In this document: one piece after another, positions 35,523-40,846 of the stretch
Layout of the letters: every line of letters begins with the position of its first letter
Position numbering within the stretch: the first letter of the stretch is position 1
Origin: a phage
Sequence record: PZ445487.1
Reading direction: 5' to 3' (one strand)
Length of the DNA: 64,000 nucleotides
The notes under the pieces: model-generated
Seen by the model: only the letters and a program-made list of their open reading frames with translations
Database searches by the model: none
What the model was told of the DNA's origin: nothing
Program-made: the position numbers and the translations under genes

Positions 35523-35756
35523 TTAAGAAACGATAACCGTCGCATCAGAATTAATTGCCTTAACCCATCCCACCGTCGGCGGGGTTAAAACGACCATATT
35601 TCCTTGATATATGACATGCGCGTTGTTACCCGTTGGAGTGCTGGGGCTATCACACAGATACACAGAACCGTGAGTCACTTGAAGAGTTTTCAAAGATGTG
35701 CCGTCTGAGACTTGCGTCCATGTACTTGCGTTTGGTGTGATCTTAGCAGTTGCCAT
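35523..35756 (-). CDS. hypothetical protein (77 aa)
   Basis: ORF track. Confidence 0.4.
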   Translation of the reverse strand: MATAKITPNASTWTQVSDGTSLKTLQVTHGSVYLCDSPSTPTGNNAHVIYQGNMVVLTPPTVGWVKAINSDATVIVS

Positions 35757-35884
35757 AATAGACCTCCTTTACAAGTCAGATCTATTTATTACAGACAAAA
35801 AGAAACCCGATCATCCTGATCGGGCTATGTTAAACCATCGTGGGGATGGAAAGACTACTCACAGCAATTTCTGATAATGGGCGT

Positions 35885-35913
35885 TGGGAGAGTGCGTCGG
35901 GAATCGAACCCGA
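35885..35913 (-). other. orphan tRNA 3'-module (T-arm tcggg/cccga, 7-nt acceptor strand, no cloverleaf completed)
   Basis: Sense reads ...TCGGG-TTCGATT-CCCGA-CGCACTC-T-CCCA; nearest complementary 5' acceptor strand (GAGTGTG) is about 150 nt upstream at 36034..36040. Confidence 0.3.
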
Positions 35914-36047
35914 AACCGTCAGGACAATGAAAAGCTATTGCATTTCACCTTGCATATCCTCCGGCTTTCTTAACTTCCTTAACCCCAGATTGTTATGAAG
36001 TCGGCATGCACACCTTCTTCATCTTCAGGAAGTCACACTCATTGTTC

Positions 36048-36136
36048 TGGTTGCTTCAACTGGATTCGAACCAGTGACCTCAGGCACCTTGTTCTCTCGA
36101 AACTTTCCTGCGCTCTACCACTCGAGCTATGAAGCA
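36048..36136 (-). tRNA. tRNA-like gene with non-canonical anticodon domain (possible pseudo-tRNA or insertion)
   Basis: Perfect 7-bp acceptor stem (TGCTTCA/TGAAGCA), D-arm GCTC-GAGTGGTA-GAGC, T-arm ACTGG-TTCGAAT-CCAGT and encoded CCA; the anticodon region is a 4-bp stem CAGG/CCTG enclosing 22 nt, and no 5-7-5 anticodon hairpin is found. Confidence 0.4.
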
Positions 36137-36139
36137 ATT

Positions 36140-36228
36140 TGGCGGAAGGTGAAGGATTCGAACCTTCGGGGGCTAAAAGCCCCACTCGATTAGCAGTCGA
36201 GTCCCTTAAACCTCTCGGGCAACCTTCC
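36140..36228 (-). tRNA. tRNA-Ser (anticodon GCU), class II, encoded CCA
   Basis: Hand-folded: acceptor GGAAGGT/ACCTTCC, anticodon arm CTCGA-CTGCTAA-TCGAG, long variable arm TGGGGC-TTTTA-GCCCCC, T-arm GAAGG-TTCGAAT-CCTTC, discriminator G, CCA. Confidence 0.85.
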
Positions 36229-36232
36229 AATT

Positions 36233-36316
36233 TGGAGCGGGAGAACAGGATTCGAACCTGTCCAGTGATCGTCGCCGATGATCAGTCGGCTACTGGCCAA
36301 CCCCTATGGCTCCCGC
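36233..36316 (-). tRNA. tRNA-Ile-like (anticodon GAU), atypical (12-nt variable region, one-nt bulge before acceptor 3' strand)
   Basis: Acceptor GCGGGAG/CTCCCGC (7 bp), anticodon arm GCCGA-CTGATCA-TCGGC (perfect), T-arm ACAGG-TTCGAAT-CCTGT, CCA encoded; D-stem has one A.A mismatch. Confidence 0.45.
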
Positions 36317-36319
36317 GAA

Positions 36320-36930
36320 ATTAGGACGGGCTTCACACCCGATTGTGCATTTGATCTGCCGTAGCCCAACTCCCCGCGCTTATCAGCGCCGATTGGTTAA
36401 CTGGCACCAGTGCCTTCTGGTTCGATCTCCTGGAACTTTACAGGCTTCGCGCCCGACCATTTCTGGAAGTTGGGGCATCGTTTTCGATGTGGAGTCACCC
36501 CATTTTATACACAGCTGGCTGCAACGCTTACTGTGTTTGGTCTACCACCACGTGCTGGGCCACGCTTGAGGACATCGGCCATCCTTCCTCAGCTAATCCA
36601 CGCAGTGATAGATTTGTATCAGAGTGTCCGGTGTAGCTTTCCGTGAGGTGCGCACTACTGTAGCCTCTACACTCTGAATTTGGTGGGCGTTACTTTCGTC
36701 GGGTTCAGATTCCGTTCGGCTATTGGACGTCGCTCGAGAGAACTTGTCGTTCGCGTACTTCGTGCTTACTTGCTTTCGTTTCACACCCATTGTTTGTCGT
36801 CGGGCGGGGGATTCAAACCCCAATCTTTAGTTTGCGTTTCTTCAAAGCTATCATATGTTCACTTTGAATACTAGACTCCCCTGGACATCAAAACAGGATC
36901 TCTATTCCATCCTGCAAGACCCGACATAAT
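36320..36930 (-). other. GC-rich ORF-poor spacer between tRNA genes with a T-arm-like motif (ggggattcaaacccc at 36806..36820)
   Basis: No convincing ORF; only a low-complexity 76-aa frame; candidate stable RNA. Confidence 0.3.
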
Positions 36931-36932
36931 CC

Positions 36933-37008
36933 TGGCGACGACGGCAGGACTTGAACCTGCGACATACGATTTAACAGACCGCCGTTCTACCGACTGAACT
37001 ACATCGTC
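36933..37008 (-). tRNA. tRNA-Asn (anticodon GUU), encoded CCA
   Basis: Hand-folded: acceptor GACGATG/CGTCGTC, D-arm GTTC-AGTCGGTA-GAAC, anticodon arm GCGGT-CTGTTAA-ATCGT, T-arm GCAGG-TTCAAGT-CCTGC, discriminator G, CCA. Confidence 0.8.
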
Positions 37009-37182
37009 TCTATTCTTACTTTCGTAAACATTCTTTATTCTGCATGAAGACCCAGGGCAGGATCATAACGATCGTAAGTTTTTGGATGAGACCCGTTCTT
37101 GATGCTCACCATCCGACCTTCCCAACTAGCGCGAATTCTGTTGGAAATTACCACCCAAATATTCTTCATAATATAGAACCCT

Positions 37183-37383
37183 TCAACTATGTTTATTCGC
37201 TTCGATCGCCCCTAATTGGGCGTCCGCGTCAGCTTTGGTGTCATGTGTCCCAAGAACTTTAGTCTTGGTGTGGTCAAGGACAACCCACTTATCGCCTCGC
37301 TTTTCAACAAACTCAACAATCTCTTTGTTGTCAGTAGCGAGACCATCCCACTCAGTAAGAAACTCACCGAACGTTTTCATCAT
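37183..37383 (-). CDS. small hypothetical protein (about 66 aa) inside the tRNA island
   Basis: ATG 37383/37380 after GGTGAG; CTAAATA-like motif (plus-strand tatttag at 37412..37418) upstream. Confidence 0.3.
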   Translation of the reverse strand: MMKTFGEFLTEWDGLATDNKEIVEFVEKRGDKWVVLDHTKTKVLGTHDTKADADAQLGAIEANKHS

Positions 37384-37420
37384 ACTCACCAATTGTTTAT
37401 TGAACAACTGGTTTATTTAG

Positions 37421-37495
37421 TGGTGACCCTGGCTGGACTTGAACCAGCGACCAATCCCTTATGAGGGGGCTGCTCTACCACTGAGCTACAGGACC
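37421..37495 (-). tRNA. tRNA-Met or tRNA-Ile2 (anticodon CAU), encoded CCA
   Basis: Hand-folded: acceptor GGTCCTG/CAGGGTC (two G.U), D-arm GCTC-AGTGGTA-GAGC, anticodon loop CTCATAA (one C.A mismatch in stem), T-arm GCTGG-TTCAAGT-CCAGC. Confidence 0.7.
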
Positions 37496-37941
37496 TTTTG
37501 TTTCTTCAAATTATCTAACACATGTGGATTGGATTTCAACATCTTCTTCATGTTGGCCTCCTTACTCAGCAATTGTAAATTCCACAATACGCAATTATAC
37601 TTATTTTCATCAACATGATCTATTTCAAACCCTTCTGGGACTAGACCATTAAATGCAACCCAGACAAACCAGTGTAGATATTTCCTGAAATATTTGCCCT
37701 TATATTCTACTTTGATTTGCAAATAACCAGTTCCATTGTCTACGCCCACCAAATATCTTTCAGGTAGTTTTTGTTCATATTCTCCAAACTGATTTTTACG
37801 GCGTATAGTCAGTTCTGGCTTTTTAATTTTTCCATAGTTGCTGACAAATACATGAATGCCAATTTTGTCTAAATACAACTCTTTCCAAATCTCTTCCATA
37901 ACAACTACCCACAGCAATATGAATTTGTTGTGTCCAATCAA
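37486..37941 (-). mobile_element. HNH homing endonuclease gene (free-standing, abutting tRNA-Met)
   Basis: EIDHVDENKYNCVLWNLQLLSKEANMKK is a classic HNH motif; AT-rich relative to surroundings; 3' end overlaps the 5' end of tRNA-Met; start ambiguous (ATG 37899 or alternative start 37941). Confidence 0.55.
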
Positions 37942-38132
37942 GGACTGTCAACCTTTTATCCCGTTTGTGCATGATCAGTTCATGCAGGCCTCTTTGTGCG
38001 CCTCACGGCAACGCGCTTCTGTAGGTCATTGACTTGCACCGTAGTCTCACCACAGGCGTTTATTTTTCCAGGGCTTTCCACTTACAAGTCTTAACCAGAT
38101 CGGGATACGGGCTTGTAAGATCAGATTGGACA

Positions 38133-38210
38133 CAACTTTGATGGCTCTAGGACTAAAGATCCCGCGTCACCCATAGACTTGGTTTATAAAATCTAGAGCC
38201 ATCAAAGTTG
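38133..38210. repeat. perfect 18-bp inverted repeat (caactttgatggctctag / ctagagccatcaaagttg) enclosing 42 nt
   Basis: Seen directly; arms at 38133..38150 and 38193..38210. Confidence 0.7.
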
Positions 38211-38585
38211 CAACCAATGTCGCAACTCGCACTTCAGCGTCTTCGTCTCGCTTCAGCACTTGTCCTCTACGCTCGGACCAAACGAGGCTGGCCGACAGAA
38301 ACATGACACCACTCATCACTAGAGCGAGGATGTGGTTGATAGCCACGATGCTATATCTCTGTCGCAGAGTGATCACACTTGTCAGGATGATCACTGTTTT
38401 GCGAACTTGAAAATACTGCGCCTGTCTCGGGTTTCCCCTTAGTTCGGCCTCTCATTGTTCGTCTAGTCAGGGAGCTACCCTTGATGACCAGCTTATTTTG
38501 AGATCTTCGCCAGCACCCACTAGTGTCTAGAATATGTAGGTGTCGAGGTCTGCAAGGCATTGCCCTATTTCATACAACGCTCTCT

Positions 38586-38730
38586 CAAGTACGCAAATCG
38601 AAGTTCTCTGGGCTTAACAGGTTCGACCCAACATGTTGTATATCGCCTAACTTACTCATGGGACGGCCACTTCTGTGTACAGACCTTGAGGGTTAAAAGA
38701 TATACCCAAAGAACTTCGATTTGCGTTGTG
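38586..38730. repeat. long-range inverted repeat (17-bp core acgcaaatcgaagttct / agaacttcgatttgcgt) enclosing about 100 nt, followed by hairpin gtgggggc-aaa-cccccac
   Basis: Core arms at 38591..38607 and 38710..38726; hairpin at 38728..38745. Confidence 0.6.
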
Positions 38731-38884
38731 GGGGCAAACCCCCACACGGCTACTTCTTTGACAGGGATTGCTAGCCCTGGGGATTCCACTGTTTAAGGCT
38801 TTATCCCATAACGCCCGAGGCGCGTTTTAACTTATTGAAGCTTGCATAACTGCAAACTGATGCGCTGTGAGACACATCTTTGAG

Positions 38885-38992
38885 GGCACTCAGTGTACGA
38901 CAGGCTCCGATATTTCATAGGGCATTACTGCCTCGGATTTAAGTTGCCTTTCTCCTGAAACTCCATACAGTCTCGCGTCTGACGCGGAATGC
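38885..38992. repeat. long-range inverted repeat (atctttgagggca / tgccctcaaagat) enclosing about 82 nt
   Basis: Arms at 38885..38897 and 38980..38992. Confidence 0.55.
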
Positions 38993-39003
38993 CCTCAAAG
39001 ATA

Positions 39004-39031
39004 TGGAGCCGTTTTAGGGAGTCGAACCCAA
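39004..39031 (-). other. orphan tRNA 3'-module with encoded CCA (T-arm TTGGG-TTCGACT-CCCTA, acceptor AAACGGC)
   Basis: No canonical D/anticodon arms within 120 nt upstream; a possible 5' partner GCCGTTA lies at 39121..39127. Confidence 0.3.
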
Positions 39032-39130
39032 ATGCTTGGCCAGCGCTGACCTTACATCCCATCTGACTTAGGCAACCCACCTCTGCTTACTCAGGAGCTT
39101 ATCCCCTTTGGACAGTCAGATATAACGGCT

Positions 39131-39158
39131 TTGGGATTGGAGGAAGGACTCGAACCTT
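39131..39158 (-). other. orphan tRNA 3'-module with encoded CCA (T-arm GAAGG-TTCGAGT-CCTTC, acceptor CTCCAAT)
   Basis: Upstream 41 nt is too short for D plus anticodon arms and no 5-7-5 hairpin is found. Confidence 0.3.
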
Positions 39159-39231
39159 CTCATGTACGCTCCTGATTTCTCAGAAGTAGTCTGCTCCCAT
39201 CGACCTATTAAGTACACGCTCCGCTCATTGT

Positions 39232-39262
39232 CGGCGGGAGATTATTAATCACACCCTCCCGC
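39232..39262. repeat. hairpin ggcgggag-(15 nt)-ctcccgcc
   Basis: 8-bp GC-rich stem seen directly. Confidence 0.5.
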
Positions 39263-39545
39263 CTATTTTAGTGCGCCGAATTTTGTTATGAGGAATCGGA
39301 AGACCTCACTGGTGTATGGCTATTAAGCTACTGCCAGGAACGTGTTATCATTAGCGATTATTTTTGTGGTCAGTTTCTAAAAACCCGCAAAGTCACGCAC
39401 AACGAAAACGAAAACCTGTTTGAGTCCTAAACCTACCTGTCTTGGTCTCACATCGCTATGAGTGGCCAGGACTCAAACAGCTTGCCGTTCAGTGAGTTAA
39501 CTATACTTTGTAACCCGTTATTGATAAAACCTTTTATTTTTGTTG

Positions 39546-39569
39546 ACGAGGGTGTGGAATCGAACCACA
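39546..39569 (-). other. orphan tRNA 3'-module without CCA (T-arm TGTGG-TTCGATT-CCACA)
   Basis: Possible 5' acceptor partner about 100 nt upstream (39644..39650). Confidence 0.25.
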
Positions 39570-40273
39570 CTTCTGAGCGCCACCCCGTGTCACCAATGCA
39601 CCACCTCACCATCGATTTGCCGGAACTTACGCATCCGGCCTCGTCCTGTCGGTGTTCTTCTGAATCCGGGAAGATCAGCAGGAACTATGAATCAAGTTAA
39701 TTCAACCAACAGGAATCCTCTTGTTGCCCTTTGACGCAACATTATGAACCCTCTATGAAGACTCATAATGTTGTCGGCGTGATGGAGATTAGCGCCCCCG
39801 ACCTCCCCTTATATGTTGGTGTCGACTTGCCAACGGGGTGCTCTCGTTTTTCTGAGCTAATCACGCTACAACAGGGAGTTTCGTTCTCCGACGGTCAAGT
39901 GCGTCCACTGACACCAGCGAGGTGGCTATTACGCCTCTATTCACACAAGCCCCTGAGACTAGGGGTTAACTGGTTTTGGGCTGCAAACCCGACTCCCACT
40001 GTGTTATTTCCCTCATGTTTAATACTTTACCGCAGCCCAGCTAATTTGAAAAGTCCTCTCCCCTTTGAGCTACACTGCCCACAGCAGTGCGGACGAACCT
40101 TCACTCAAAACCGGATGCGCCGAAGTGGGCAACTGTTTACCGGACTGATCAGGTAGACCCAGGAGAGAGCAGGTAATCCCGATCAGGAGGATGAGGAGTA
40201 ACATCATGTAAAACATAGTGTTCCCTCCCTTCCATGCAACTAACTTTACTACAATTATTTATTGAATAAAGCG

Positions 40274-40846
40274 TTATTTTACCACTTTTAACTTCACATC
40301 GCGCTCAATCAGATACACATATTCACGGGCGGCGGCCTGTGACATATAATGAGTGGAAGGAGTGCTGTGTTTGTTCAGTGTCTCTTTTAATTCAACGCGC
40401 TCAGCCCACCCATTGATGGAGGTGCCGTAGAAACCGATCACGGCGGCAAAATAAATGTGTTGAGAGCCTGGCTCGACAATATAATTTATCGTGAAGCAAG
40501 TGTCAGAACGGATTGCCTCCAATTTGATTCCAACGCGGGTGATCGGTAAATCATTAGCAACACATAAATGACGAAAGCGGTCACGGCGAGATTGTGTTGA
40601 CTGCATTAATTCACCCATTAGTGTCGCAGTGGCATCGATATTAAAAGAGAATGTCGAAGATGTTTTGAAGTCAGACTTTGCAAGTTCTACCCCAGAAGAA
40701 AGTACACGACGGTAATTGACATCTTTATTTGTCAGACGCTTTATTTCGGTGCGAATTTTCTCAAATGGCACTTCAGACATTACTTTCCCTTCATATTTTT
40801 CTAACAAAGGGATGATATGTTTTAATACAGCAGTGTTGATATGCAT
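40274..40846 (-). CDS. hypothetical protein (190 aa)
   Basis: ORF track; divergent from the late structural module. Confidence 0.5.
   Translation of the reverse strand: MHINTAVLKHIIPLLEKYEGKVMSEVPFEKIRTEIKRLTNKDVNYRRVLSSGVELAKSDFKTSSTFSFNIDATATLMGELMQSTQSRRDRFRHLCVANDLPITRVGIKLEAIRSDTCFTINYIVEPGSQHIYFAAVIGFYGTSINGWAERVELKETLNKHSTPSTHYMSQAAAREYVYLIERDVKLKVVK

Follow-up and report, generated by a model that had tools for sequence, protein, structure and literature searches.

A co-oriented array of tRNA-like cassettes with a putative tmRNA-derived RNA in Escherichia phage CBA120

What kinds of RNA are encoded where a phage genome lines up T arms and acceptor strands in series, only some of which belong to recognizable tRNAs? 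The question is raised by the minus strand of a 64-kb stretch of DNA (64,000 nt in full, here called the window), whose source is Escherichia phage CBA120. A preliminary description had listed nine T-arm plus acceptor modules there and had proposed for the unusual ones, without choosing among them, tRNA genes with insertions, processed stable RNAs with tRNA-like 3' ends, or decayed tRNA genes. A regular-expression scan for T arms (5-bp stem and loop U[U/G]CRANN) confirmed the modules: nine clean T arms were found on the minus strand of the island (35,885-39,645), and just 5 weaker matches in the rest of the window on both strands. In 8 of the 9 modules the T arm is followed by an acceptor 3' strand with encoded CCA, which bears out that most modules carry a genome-encoded CCA; the exception is module 39546, which ends ...CCUCGUC-A-ACA. 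On the minus strand from 35,797 to 39,645, structured RNA cassettes follow one another in a single orientation and are probably transcribed as one polycistronic RNA or a few. Three of them are working tRNAs and two are aberrant tRNAs; there are also at least five tRNA-like cassettes, with acceptor-like or long helices as their closure, and one tmRNA-derived RNA (Table 1). The array occupies a gene-poor 4.4-kb region of CBA120. The HNH homing-endonuclease ORF, annotated as orf221 in the CBA120 record, overlaps tRNA-Met with its 3' tip.

Table 1. Features of the RNA island and their positions in the window
Feature	Position	Strand	Description
Intrinsic terminator, end of island	35797..35826	(-)	10-bp stem, then U run
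Cassette P (module 35885)	35885..36040	(-)	four-way junction: 7-bp acceptor, T arm, two long arms, tail UCCCA
Aberrant tRNA T	36048..36136	(-)	acceptor, D and T arms canonical; anticodon loop replaced by 22-nt loop AAAGUUUCGAGAGAACAAGGUG
tRNA-Ser (GCU), canonical	36140..36228	(-)	ARAGORN; Rfam 56 bits
Aberrant tRNA (ARAGORN Ile-GAU)	36233..36316	(-)	odd D arm, 13-nt variable arm, C37
Cassette 36800	36798..36925	(-)	acceptor GUCGGGU/GCCCGAC; degenerate T loop UUUGAAU; predicted fold
tRNA-Asn (GUU), canonical	36933..37008	(-)	ARAGORN; Rfam 70.2 bits
tRNA-Met (CAU), canonical	37421..37495	(-)	ARAGORN; Rfam 60.9 bits
HNH homing-endonuclease ORF	37486..37899	(-)	Pfam HNH_3, E 2.6e-13
Helix-closed cassette	38873..39005	(-)	long helix CAUCUUUGAGGGCA/UGCCCUCAAAGAUG
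Cassette 39004	39004..39129	(-)	acceptor GCCGUU/AACGGC, U73, encoded CCA, two long arms; predicted fold
Cassette 39131	39132..39226	(-)	GGAG/CUCC, 7-bp helix and T arm; tail AAUCCCA
PK3-like pseudoknot	39233..39275	(-)	CGCAC with GUGUG in loop of hairpin GGCGGGAG/CUCCCGCC; invariant loop GAUUAAUAA
PK2-like H-type pseudoknot	39276..39308	(-)	hairpin UGAGG/CCUCA; loop CCGA with downstream UCGG
Helix-5-like stem	39309..39337	(-)	surrounds final tag codons; stop codon in loop
Tag reading frame	39323..39355	(-)	GCU AAU GAU AAC ACG UUC CUG GCA GUA GCU UAA = ANDNTFLAVA*
A-rich linker	39356..39367	(-)	12 nt, ACAAAAAUAAUC, with U(-5)A(-4)
Antisense arm	39368..39417	(-)	colinear reverse complement of host tmRNA nt 56-107
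5' hairpin, Ackermannviridae-specific	39416..39480	(-)	CUGUUUGAGUCCU / AGGACUCAAACAG
Candidate sigma-70-like promoter	39500..39527	(-)	TTATCA-16-TATAGT upstream of tmRNA-like RNA; pattern match only
Cassette 39546	39544..39645	(-)	acceptor GACGAGG/CCUCGUC, T arm, no encoded CCA
T arms of regex scan	39569-39553, 39159-39143, 39031-39015, 37448-37432, 36960-36944, 36261-36245, 36167-36151, 36075-36059, 35913-35897	(-)	

ARAGORN called Ser-GCU, 'Ile-GAU', Asn-GUU and Met-CAU, and Rfam at its gathering score called the Ser, Asn and Met tRNAs, so the three modules that had been folded by hand into canonical tRNAs stand as such. The two described as near-canonical are aberrant tRNAs by their ARAGORN and Rfam results. 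On the 'Ile-GAU' module the Rfam tRNA model made no call, and in E-value mode it was matched by tRNA-Sec with only 23 bits (36237-36316); it is 95-100% conserved in Agtrevirus. The covariance models, proposed earlier as a check on all unusual modules, did recognize tRNA T (48.7 bits for the Rfam tRNA model in E-value mode, 36051-36136) and found no tRNA in the four modules without a cloverleaf. The anticodon loop of T has 22 nt against 9 expected by the Rfam model; its motif is conserved and common to phage HK620 and HK620-type prophages. The encoded CCA of T varies (ACCA, AUCA or AACA).

Modules 35885 (156 nt, cassette P), 39004 (126 nt), 39131 (95 nt) and 39546 (102 nt) combine a tRNA-like acceptor and T arm without a cloverleaf. 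The earlier observation that D and anticodon arms are missing held: no covariance model gave any of the four a tRNA fold at E≤10, and RNAfold places long hairpins where these arms would be, with the same type of closure, an acceptor-like stem beside the T arm, in all of them. Comparison with other Ackermannviridae, also proposed in the preliminary description, located cassette P in 235 records of this family (71-100% identity), with its four-way junction kept across Kuttervirus, Agtrevirus and Taipeivirus and its internal loops conserved. RNAalifold predicts 46 pairs for P from five sequences, 10 of them with both-sided compensatory changes, and P is the only tRNA-like cassette with good covariation. 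Cassette 39004 was found in 199 phage records, full length in 196 of them and with 96-100% identity across genera whose flanks are about 75-83% identical; a single C:G to U:A compensation was noted in L070. Cassette 39131 exists in two natural versions with the same outer architecture and a wholly different inner helix (CGUGUAC/GUACAUG vs AGGUGCU/AGCACCC), and is not present in L052 and L127. The weakest module is 39546, with a fold z-score of -0.27, no better than shuffled sequence; its T stem is compensated in T751 (GUGUGG/CCACAC to GUAUGG/CCAUGC). A tenth, degenerate module, cassette 36800, is 91-98% conserved as far as Dickeya Limestonevirus. The helix type that closes the 38873..39005 cassette surrounds other inserts in Agtrevirus and other Kuttervirus genomes, with a T arm inside in L070 and L127. 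Because of the compensatory changes in P and the cross-genus identity of 39004, the non-cloverleaf modules are conserved cassettes rather than decayed genes. Among the three explanations offered at the outset, processed stable RNAs with tRNA-like 3' ends fit best in view of the covariation in P, the identity of 39004 and the two versions of 39131; an insertion fits only 36048-36136, and decayed genes are disfavoured.

Between modules 39546 and 39131, at 39,417-39,233 on the minus strand, lies a putative tmRNA-derived RNA, on which neither ARAGORN nor Rfam at gathering thresholds makes a call. The preliminary description overlooked it, though tmRNA stood among the Rfam families it suggested for checking. 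That check gives sub-threshold matches (tmRNA_permuted 20.6-27.3 bits, beta_tmRNA 14.6-18.1 bits) that coincide exactly with the tag and helix 5, and the posterior probability is high over CAAAGAUAAAUGCAAACGAUGA...UAA. The 3' half, with its resume context, ssrA-like tag of 10 codons, helix 5 and a pair of pseudoknots, is a sense homologue of the template part of tmRNA; the resume context is identical to that of genuine two-piece tmRNA at 17 of 17 positions. The candidate promoter upstream has 9/12 consensus matches in a consensus scan, and the siphophage, DS8 and wV8 copies have TTGACA-17-TAGATT or TATAGT, with the predicted start just ahead of AGUUUUCG. The stem of the 5' hairpin covaries between CBA120 and Vi01/T751 (GAGUCCU/AGGACUC to GGGCACC/GGUGCUC).

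Among 100 unique copies, U(-5) is present in 97 and A(-4) in all, and the linker measures 12 nt in 91 of the 95 that have the standard ...GACC arm end; E. coli tmRNA has the equivalents U85 and A86 and an 11-nt linker after PK1. The tag frame starts with an Ala resume codon, without AUG or Shine-Dalgarno sequence, and stops are present in both other frames. Its 28 distinct ORFs encode 17 peptides, every one 10 codons plus stop. Residues 1, 2, 7 and 10 never change, although synonymous codons are used for them, and the C-terminal ...MAA or ...AVA of the tags resembles ClpXP degrons. The helix-5-like stem, with a stop-codon arrangement matching that of E. coli tmRNA, is formed by A1 columns 89-92/115-118, where pair 92:115 is AU in 20 and GC in 17 sequences. 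Covarying pairs were also found in the PK2-like pseudoknot, three in stem 1, which RNAalifold recovered independently, and two in stem 2 (130:149 GC 25, AU 12; 131:148 AU 29, GC 7). The PK3-like hairpin stem has five, and its loop helix, also predicted by RNAalifold, is compensated in wV8 (CGUAC:GUAUG) and pYD38-A (CGCAU:AUGUG). In the core 92.8% of cells hold a pair vs 33-45% in slid controls, 15 pairs show both-sided changes, the observed score was reached by 0 of 500 shuffles, and RNAalifold agrees on two helices. The only candidate for a tRNA-like domain, in wV8, was rejected as a degenerate tRNA-Arg.

The 5' 40-50 nt of the RNA form an arm antisense to host tmRNA, for which the E. coli molecule served as reference. 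Its target covers the 3' part of PK1, the A-rich linker, the resume codon and codons 2-6, with a median of 31 matches and 2 mismatches to nt 56-107 (z -4 to -6.4) and a perfect 8-11-nt seed to ssrA 96-106 in every variant. The BLAST plus/minus alignment has 28 of 39 columns identical, with 3 mismatches and two gaps (3 and 5 nt), and the antisense score exceeds the sense score in 99 of 99 variants. RNAduplex gives -45.5 kcal/mol vs -33.5 ± 3.0 for dinucleotide shuffles, 1 of 500 of which reached the observed value; since it tolerates large internal loops, its absolute energies are inflated. Cofolding with full-length tmRNA still yields a gain of -11 to -21 kcal/mol. The best site for the arm inside the 4.4-kb island is weaker (-39.4), pairing with the 3' half of its own RNA is poor (-23 to -29 kcal/mol), and no signal came from the other island loops. 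The arm comes in three types of divergent sequence (main, wV8 and L051/SSU5), each antisense to this one tmRNA stretch, which is nearly invariant across Enterobacterales and Vibrio. The Salmonella tmRNA tag is ANDETYALAA, which would leave Salmonella phages with a mismatch in the seed. The arm also weakly resembles tmRNA helix 2a in sense (GCGAC UUUGCG).

From these sequence relations we infer binding of the phage RNA to host tmRNA, whose tag template it would replace or block, a model that adds putative processing, docking and tag exchange to the homology, covariation, coding constraint and complementarity described above, and to which we give an even chance. Host RNase P, RNase Z and perhaps RNase III would free the cassettes by cleavage at the acceptor/T-arm mimics and long closing helices. 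The conserved seed (U)AGUUUUCGU(C) would then bind the tag codons of host tmRNA, which are single-stranded, and the duplex would zip via the resume codon into PK1. This would mask the host template and place the phage resume codon 12 nt past the end of the duplex that is closest to helix 2, a spacing comparable to the 11 nt by which the host resume codon follows PK1. On ribosomes under rescue by host Ala-tmRNA-SmpB, the phage tag AANDNTFLAVA would be copied in place of AANDENYALAA, so that the phage RNA would serve as a parasitic 'coding piece' with the entire host tmRNA as its acceptor piece. To our knowledge there is no case of a template given in trans to intact tmRNA. It counts against docking that PK1 needs displacing and that the imperfect ~45-bp duplex could just be an RNase III substrate, and against the tag swap that phage tags resemble ordinary degrons.

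The same complementarity would be expected of an antisense inhibitor or sponge that does no more than block or destabilise host tmRNA, either by hiding the resume codon and tag or by triggering RNase III, which we regard as possible if rather doubtful. A nuclease could plausibly attack a long imperfect duplex, the phage RNA has no tRNA-like domain, and prophage-encoded anti-sRNAs are known. The tmRNA-like 3' half would then be a decoy for S1, RNase R or SmpB, or an evolutionary leftover, but the exact 10-codon frame is kept over 28 ORF variants with synonymous turnover at invariant residues, the stop codon stays fixed in the helix loop, and U(-5)A(-4) and the 12-nt linker are preserved. It is very unlikely, in our estimate, that the phage encodes a complete two-piece tmRNA, in which a cassette such as 39004, 39131, T or P is an aminoacylatable acceptor piece pairing with the coding RNA. 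CCA-encoding T-arm cassettes do adjoin the core in Ackermannviridae, the resume context matches natural two-piece tmRNAs, and P contains AAGGUGUGCAUGCCGA, similar to tmRNA nt 38-51. Yet no module with G3:U70 accompanies the core and no cassette carries it, adjacent cassettes swap freely between phages while the core ends stay constant, the SP-058 copy is ended by a terminator with no T arm in between, in DS8 and HK620 the only T-arm modules are degenerate and lack an encoded CCA, and nothing in the island pairs better with the arm than host tmRNA does.

For the tRNA-like cassettes, the processing role assumed in the docking model competes with one as decoys or substrates for tRNA-directed host factors (anticodon nucleases or other tRNA-targeting defences, modification enzymes, CCA-adding enzyme, synthetases). 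Phage tRNAs are known to counter tRNA-cleaving defences, the cassettes have other sequence in place of the anticodon region but retain acceptor and T arm, in most cases with CCA, and the conserved internal loops of P and T suggest specific ligands. We consider such a role unlikely, as any partner is hypothetical, T has no conserved encoded CCA and the long helices that close the cassettes look more like processing sites. That the island is non-functional debris, with decayed tRNA genes and a captured ssrA fragment left, for instance, by an attachment site or homing-endonuclease scars, is hardly credible, and the data already speak against it. In its favour, ssrA is a frequent integration site of phages, an HNH endonuclease lies within the island and its content is mosaic between phages; attachment sites, however, carry the ssrA 3' end and not the tag region, the core is constrained in both structure and coding and occurs in unrelated phage families, and P and 39004 are conserved with compensatory changes.

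The tmRNA-like RNA family was found in 649 phage records (Ackermannviridae, Felixounavirus, Mooglevirus, Schitoviridae, siphophages, HK620 and SSU5) and in prophages of 144 of 5,426 E. coli genomes, in both almost never annotated. The presence in one RNA of a degradation-tag template and an arm complementary to host tmRNA, with no tRNA end, suggests interference with ribosome rescue by many enterobacterial phages. Copies located in tRNA clusters or lambdoid late leaders point the same way as the tRNAs or late transcription, and the siphophage copies have their own promoter and are located between tail genes in opposite orientation.

The stretch 35,700-40,300 is 100% identical to positions 134,002-138,602 of JN593240.1 (Escherichia phage CBA120; Kuttervirus, Ackermannviridae), a record in which this interval is annotated with four tRNAs, one HNH endonuclease and several very small ORFs. 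A T-arm scan yielded nine clean T arms between 35,897 and 39,569, in agreement with the nine minus-strand modules of the preliminary description; both strands of the rest of the window gave five matches, all weaker. CCA was said to be encoded in most modules, and an acceptor 3' strand with CCA indeed follows eight of the nine T arms. The three modules folded by hand as canonical tRNAs were called by ARAGORN and by Rfam at gathering score as Ser-GCU, Asn-GUU and Met-CAU. Of the two modules regarded as near-canonical, 36048-36136 stands by its Rfam score (36051-36136 as tRNA in E-value mode, 48.7 bits) and has a loop of 22 nt where the 7-nt anticodon loop would be, whereas 36233-36316 is accepted by ARAGORN ('Ile-GAU') and not by Rfam, where it scores 23 bits as tRNA-Sec and does not qualify as tRNA (RF00005). 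Besides an irregular D arm, this aberrant tRNA (minus strand) shows C37 and a variable arm of 13 nt, and its tRNA-Sec-like Rfam alignment is weak; non-canonical 8/4 or 9/3 'allo-tRNAs' are known from bacteria and phages (PMC5389517). Modules 35885, 39004, 39131 and 39546, described as lacking a cloverleaf, are folded as tRNA by no covariance model (E<=10), and module 36800 likewise gave no RF00005 cloverleaf with these models. In the RNAfold structures each of the four is closed by an acceptor-like stem beside the T arm, and long hairpins stand where a tRNA would have its D and anticodon arms. The T-arm scan, ARAGORN, Rfam and RNAfold results thus confirm the initial observation, to which a tenth module is added in the table. 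At a Dickeya phage locus (L007:4425-4501) we noticed a tRNA(CAU) that is the positional and sequence orthologue of the Kuttervirus tRNA-Asn(GUU) (36933-37008, minus strand); as the acceptor, D and T arms were kept and the anticodon arm alone was replaced, the pair represents an anticodon-arm swap.

Features of the RNA island, in order of the minus strand
Feature	Position	Strand	Remark
Promoter-like site	39,527-39,500	minus	pattern match
tmRNA-like core	39,417-39,233	minus	
HNH_3 homing-endonuclease ORF	37486-37899	minus	end falls inside tRNA-Met (37421-37495)
Tenth, degenerate module	36,925-36,798	minus	
Strong terminator	35,826-35,797	minus	closes the island

Decay of tRNA genes had been considered as one origin of the unusual modules. 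This was not borne out, since they are conserved cassettes, two of them (P and 39004) with compensatory changes. Module P (36,040-35,885) was found in 235 Ackermannviridae records at 71-100% identity, and RNAalifold on five sequences folds it into a four-way junction of a 7-bp acceptor, two long arms and the T arm, with both-sided changes in 10 of the 46 pairs. In 196 records from different genera, module 39004 keeps an identity of 96-100%; its flanks there are far more divergent, and it shows a single compensation from C:G to U:A. Two versions of module 39131 have a common frame (GGAG / helix / T arm / CUCC-AAUCCCA) and unrelated inner helices; the module is missing from some Kuttervirus genomes, where GACAAUG is left joined to CCGUUAUAUC, and Vi01 carries another cassette at this site. 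Further cassettes are closed by 13-17-bp helices, e.g. CAUCUUUGAGGGCA/UGCCCUCAAAGAUG, some with T arms inside. The 22-nt loop of the tRNA at 36048-36136 ('T'; ARAGYUUCGRRAGAACAAGGUG) is common to HK620-type prophages, and its encoded CCA is not conserved. The predicted folds contain the acceptor/T-arm/CCA geometry, which covaries in module P, and modules and tRNAs lie in the same orientation between the promoter-like site and the terminator. The simplest explanation for the cassettes would be their release as RNAs by the tRNA-processing enzymes of the host. A hairpin loop of module P (35885-36040, minus strand) around 36016, AAGGUGUGCAUGCCGA, differs little from nt 38-51 of E. coli tmRNA (AAGGUGCAUGCCGA, the 5' strand of helix 2), and the loop of 'T' includes CAAGGUGC; neither AAGGUGUGCAUGCCGA nor CAAGGUGC is a significant antisense match to tmRNA.

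A tmRNA-derived element, hereafter the core, was missed by the preliminary description. The entry point was a 140-nt stretch (39,270-39,409) with roughly 78-80% nucleotide matches in unrelated siphophages of 44-48 kb, and on reading these loci a tmRNA-style tag frame was recognised. In CBA120 it reads GCU AAU GAU AAC ACG UUC CUG GCA GUA GCU UAA (ANDNTFLAVA and stop). Sub-threshold Rfam matches to tmRNA_permuted and beta_tmRNA lie exactly at the tag frame, with high posterior probability across ...CAAAGAUAAAUGCAAACGAUGA...UAA and the next hairpin. The core is single-copy in the window by nhmmer profile, and a 201-nt query detected it in 649 of 50,697 phage records spanning Ackermannviridae, Felixounavirus, Mooglevirus, one Schitoviridae member, DS8-like and Klebsiella siphophages, HK620 and SSU5, almost always unannotated. 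Of 5,426 complete E. coli genomes, 144 (~2.7%) also carry it in prophages, Shiga-toxigenic lineages included, with no annotation in any of the E. coli prophage matches listed, and an IMG/VR pattern scan contributed >120 additional loci. Standard annotation overlooks this common family. Three contexts recur: tRNA clusters (wV8, SP-058, Sf14); the lambdoid late leader, where the core reads in the direction of late transcription and lies between pR'/qut and tQ (HK620) or past Q (other lambdoid prophages); and a small island of RNAs set between tail genes in siphophages and equipped with its own promoter. Core copies of lambdoid phages and siphophages (HK620 1370-1860, i.e. L010, and loci L008, L009 and L012) have on their flanks 'X modules' whose closing helix of ~16 bp, CACAACAGGUAAGAGCA/UGCUCUUUCCGUUGUG, covaries in DS8 as GGAAAUAGUA/UACUAUUCCC; T arms lie inside some of these modules, which may mark sites of processing by RNase III or RNase P.

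The 3' half of the core carries the tag. Among 129 copies (100 unique) we found 17 peptides encoded by 28 distinct ORFs, all of exactly 10 codons plus stop and following the pattern AN[DE]xxxL[AM][AV]A. Residues 1, 2, 7 and 10 are invariant while their codons vary (GCA/GCU, AAC/AAU, CUG/UUG, GCU/GCG/GCC), the stop is UAA, UGA or UAG, and both alternative frames contain stops. No conserved AUG or Shine-Dalgarno sequence accompanies the frame across the copies, and the AUG of AAAUGCA is missing in Kuttervirus, which argues against a conventional small ORF. U(-5) is present in 97 and A(-4) in all 100 unique copies, corresponding to U85 and A86 of E. coli. In a 37-sequence alignment (A1) the proposed structure is 92.8% paired, compared with 33-45% for slid partners, and shows both-sided changes in 15 pairs (102 cells); of 500 shuffles, 0 attained the score observed. 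Its elements are a helix 5 whose loop contains the stop codon and two pseudoknots, one PK2-like and one PK3-like; two of the helices emerge independently with RNAalifold, and wV8 and pYD38-A provide extra compensations. The peptides terminate in ...MAA or ...AVA; in a ClpXP degron screen the terminal Ala-Ala was critical and LVA was recognised too. As in tmRNA's mRNA-like domain, the core thus has a resume codon independent of AUG and Shine-Dalgarno, a short tag with a hydrophobic, Ala-final end, U(-5)A(-4), and a stop codon in the loop of helix 5 followed by pseudoknots, of which there are two instead of three. The sequence comparisons and the modelled structure provide evidence that this half would be a working tmRNA-type template.

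The core as a whole is not a tmRNA. ARAGORN made no tmRNA call, and the best tmRNA-model scores in Rfam, 20.6 bits for the window and 27.3 bits for DS8, stay below the gathering score (47); the ssrA of E. coli MG1655 reaches 295.8 bits. The core lacks a PK1 upstream of the resume codon and a helix 2 that would join the template to a tRNA-like domain. The 40-50 nt upstream contain no convincing internal pseudoknot: the candidate CUUUG/CAAAG is just 89% paired with weak covariation, and RNAalifold returned nothing over the 5' 88 columns. A two-piece coding piece would begin with a GGGG... acceptor 5' strand, which is absent here; in three lineages the pattern-predicted promoter lies directly upstream and positions the 5' end at (GAU)AGUUUUCG. 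Scanning genome contigs with ATAAATGCAAACGA gave mostly chance matches and no phage-type core, and yielded genuine two-piece tmRNAs having the phage-type resume context. The phage context AUAAAUGCAAACGAUGA is identical to that of the Pelistega two-piece tmRNA. This genuine permuted RNA of Pelistega indica (L175, 12150-12479; tag ANDESYALAA) matches the phage RNA in 17 of 17 nt of resume context and shares with it two short stretches past the tag, GUGUGAUU and AUAACAGG, which hints at derivation of the phage sense half from a two-piece-type coding piece.

In place of PK1 the core carries a 5' arm antisense to host tmRNA. We compared the arm, in which GUUUUCG is invariant, with the real E. coli ssrA taken from MG1655 (363-nt tmRNA). 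Every arm variant contains an 8-11-nt perfect complement to ssrA nt 96-106, i.e. tag codons 3-6, which the seed AGUUUUCGU faces. The complementarity extends colinearly: BLAST aligned DS8 nt 3-33 with ssrA 106-68 on the minus strand (DS8 TAGTTTTCGTGA---GCGACT-----TTGCGGGTTTTTA, ssrA TAGTTTTCGTCGTTTGCGACTATTTTTTGCGGCTTTTTA), the first 39 positions of the nhmmer profile match the ssrA minus strand, and RNAduplex predicts pairing along the full length of the arm (40-50 nt) to nt 56-107 of tmRNA, with energies of -40 to -48 kcal/mol that are inflated by permissive loops. The corresponding z values are -4.0 to -6.4, the main type being equalled by 0-1 of 500 dinucleotide shuffles; the wV8 arm is shorter and weaker (z -2.6). 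Against the reverse complement of ssrA, 99 unique copies have a median of 31 matches and 2 mismatches, with an antisense score above the sense score in 99 of 99, and cofolding with full-length tmRNA still gains 11-21 kcal/mol. The best site for the arm within the 4.4-kb island is weaker than host tmRNA, and the core's own 3' half weaker still; in the other conserved loops (P, T and the PK3 loop) antisense to tmRNA was not significant. Three divergent arm types (main, wV8/Sf14 and L051/L067-type) are antisense to one tmRNA stretch, and by eye the arms of Bue1 and SSU5 retain the GUUUUCGU and GCGA(C/U) blocks. The predicted pairing is extended, above chance, conserved and target-specific, as in trans-acting antisense RNAs. 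The target stretch is nearly invariant among the tmRNAs of the hosts concerned; the Salmonella tag is ANDETYALAA, which would give a seed mismatch. Judged by its sequence, this RNA seems to have arisen when part of the template region of tmRNA was duplicated in inverted orientation, with an antisense half still matched to the host and a sense half that appears to have diverged just enough to avoid pairing while staying translatable.

In the predicted duplex the 3' end of the arm pairs beside helix 2 (nt 56-62), and 12 nt separate it from the resume codon of the phage RNA; in host tmRNA the resume codon lies 11 nt past PK1. This geometry is suggestive. In the model best supported by these computational results, the phage RNA would dock on host tmRNA, cover its resume codon and tag and present its own, thereby acting as a coding piece for which the entire host tmRNA serves as the acceptor piece. 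Stated in full, enterobacterial phages and prophages would encode a 'template-swap' RNA: a tmRNA coding module without its former tRNA end would pair with PK1, the resume codon and the first six codons of host tmRNA, charged host tmRNA-SmpB would bring the phage tag template to stalled ribosomes, and the cassettes would form a mobile toolkit released by host tRNA-processing enzymes; this fuller reading we put forward tentatively, as less likely than not.

The main rival is a pure inhibitor or sponge of tmRNA; it leaves the coding constraint on the 3' half unexplained. It is unlikely that the phage encodes an acceptor piece of its own. No G3:U70 acceptor/T-arm module accompanies the core in 133 loci screened over 2.5 kb on each side; the sole adjacent match, in wV8, is a degenerate copy of the canonical tRNA-Arg(UCU) of Mooglevirus, and the 3' end GGCUCCA of module 39004 resembles an Ala-type acceptor, with GCCGUU as actual partner giving C3:G70. 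The SP-058 core runs into an intrinsic terminator with no T arm, and in Ackermannviridae the cassettes 3' of the core are interchangeable while its ends are constant. Debris is a very unlikely source of a core with conserved tag residues and compensated helices, and docking with template delivery is the reading we favour.

Compared with one-piece tmRNA (SsrA, RF00023) and its SmpB partner, the phage RNA has the same Ala resume codon after U(-5)A(-4), a similar 10-codon AND...AA-type tag, the stop in the helix 5 loop and H-type pseudoknots downstream. Unlike tmRNA, it has no acceptor stem, G3:U70, T arm, CCA or helix 2 of its own, PK1 is replaced by the arm antisense to host tmRNA, only two pseudoknots are present, and it remains uncalled by ARAGORN and at the Rfam gathering score. 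With the coding pieces of alpha- and beta-proteobacterial two-piece tmRNAs (RF01849, RF01850, RF04321) it shares being a separate template RNA in need of a partner RNA with an aminoacylated end. In natural systems, however, the coding piece contributes the 5' strand of the acceptor and has as its partner a dedicated acceptor piece encoded upstream in the same gene, whereas the presumed partner here is the complete host tmRNA, paired at its template region. T4 species 1 and 2 are stable RNAs inside a tRNA gene cluster, transcribed together with its tRNAs and with tRNA-like ends usable by host processing enzymes. Like them, the CBA120 cassettes would be non-tRNA RNAs of a phage tRNA cluster; the cassettes are more numerous, modular and common to several phage families. 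AgvB and AsxR of EHEC are prophage-encoded anti-sRNAs or RNA sponges that pair with host non-coding RNA. Such pairing is predicted for the phage RNA as well, and lambdoid core copies lie in the same late-leader region; AgvB and AsxR target Hfq sRNA, while the phage RNA would target tmRNA and adds a translatable tmRNA-type template. Phage-borne tmRNAs occur in the mycobacteriophage Bxz1 group and Bacillus phage G, and DS6A has the tRNA-like domain only (Hudson et al. 2014, PMC4131195). These too are phage-encoded tmRNA members or derivatives, DS6A being a case of partial tmRNA in a phage; they are complete or a tRNA-like domain alone, and the CBA120 RNA is the reciprocal, template only plus antisense arm. 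Enterobacterial phages are not reported as tmRNA carriers in that survey (PMC4131195).

A search of open-access papers and bioRxiv gave no mention of the tag peptides, no account of a phage-encoded tmRNA mimic or of antisense RNA directed at tmRNA, and no transcriptome of these phages. The tmRNA-SmpB pathway is the main bacterial ribosome-rescue system and a drug target, and we know of no virus that manipulates it via RNA. If true, the proposed mechanism would be without precedent in two respects: a virus would re-program trans-translation, and an intact tmRNA would be provided with a tmRNA template in trans. If docking takes place, both the handling of stalled ribosomes and truncated proteins during phage takeover and the question whether a tmRNA template works in trans become directly testable, and the core family could provide a natural scaffold to re-tag or inhibit trans-translation.

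A largely ORF-free stretch of 2.5-4.5 kb occupies the equivalent position in every Ackermannviridae genome fetched, flanked by a tail-needle-knob neighbour and a baseplate wedge gene, and is a mosaic of blocks of 74-99% identity interspersed with unrelated inserts. More broadly, phage 'tRNA clusters' of several families appear as mosaic structured-RNA islands in which tRNAs are a minority. The wV8 and Agtrevirus RNA islands contain HNH ORFs as well, so the shuffling of cassettes may be driven by homing endonucleases. A perfect hairpin of 18-20 bp (CAACUUUGAUGGCUCUAG/CUAGAGCCAUCAAAGUUG) at 38116-38231 (minus strand), with sub-threshold microRNA-like Rfam matches, may be a further long-helix cassette or an RNase III site. 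Some 470 nt at 36320-36795 (minus strand) without credible ORF are 85-92% identical between Kuttervirus and Dickeya Limestonevirus, above the 74-80% of the protein-coding edges in that comparison, and probably represent another structured RNA, one without Rfam match. The stretch 39650-40270 is 74-92% conserved across genera, contains as ORFs the annotated 48-aa orf219 and a spurious-looking plus-strand ORF, and may also be part of the island.
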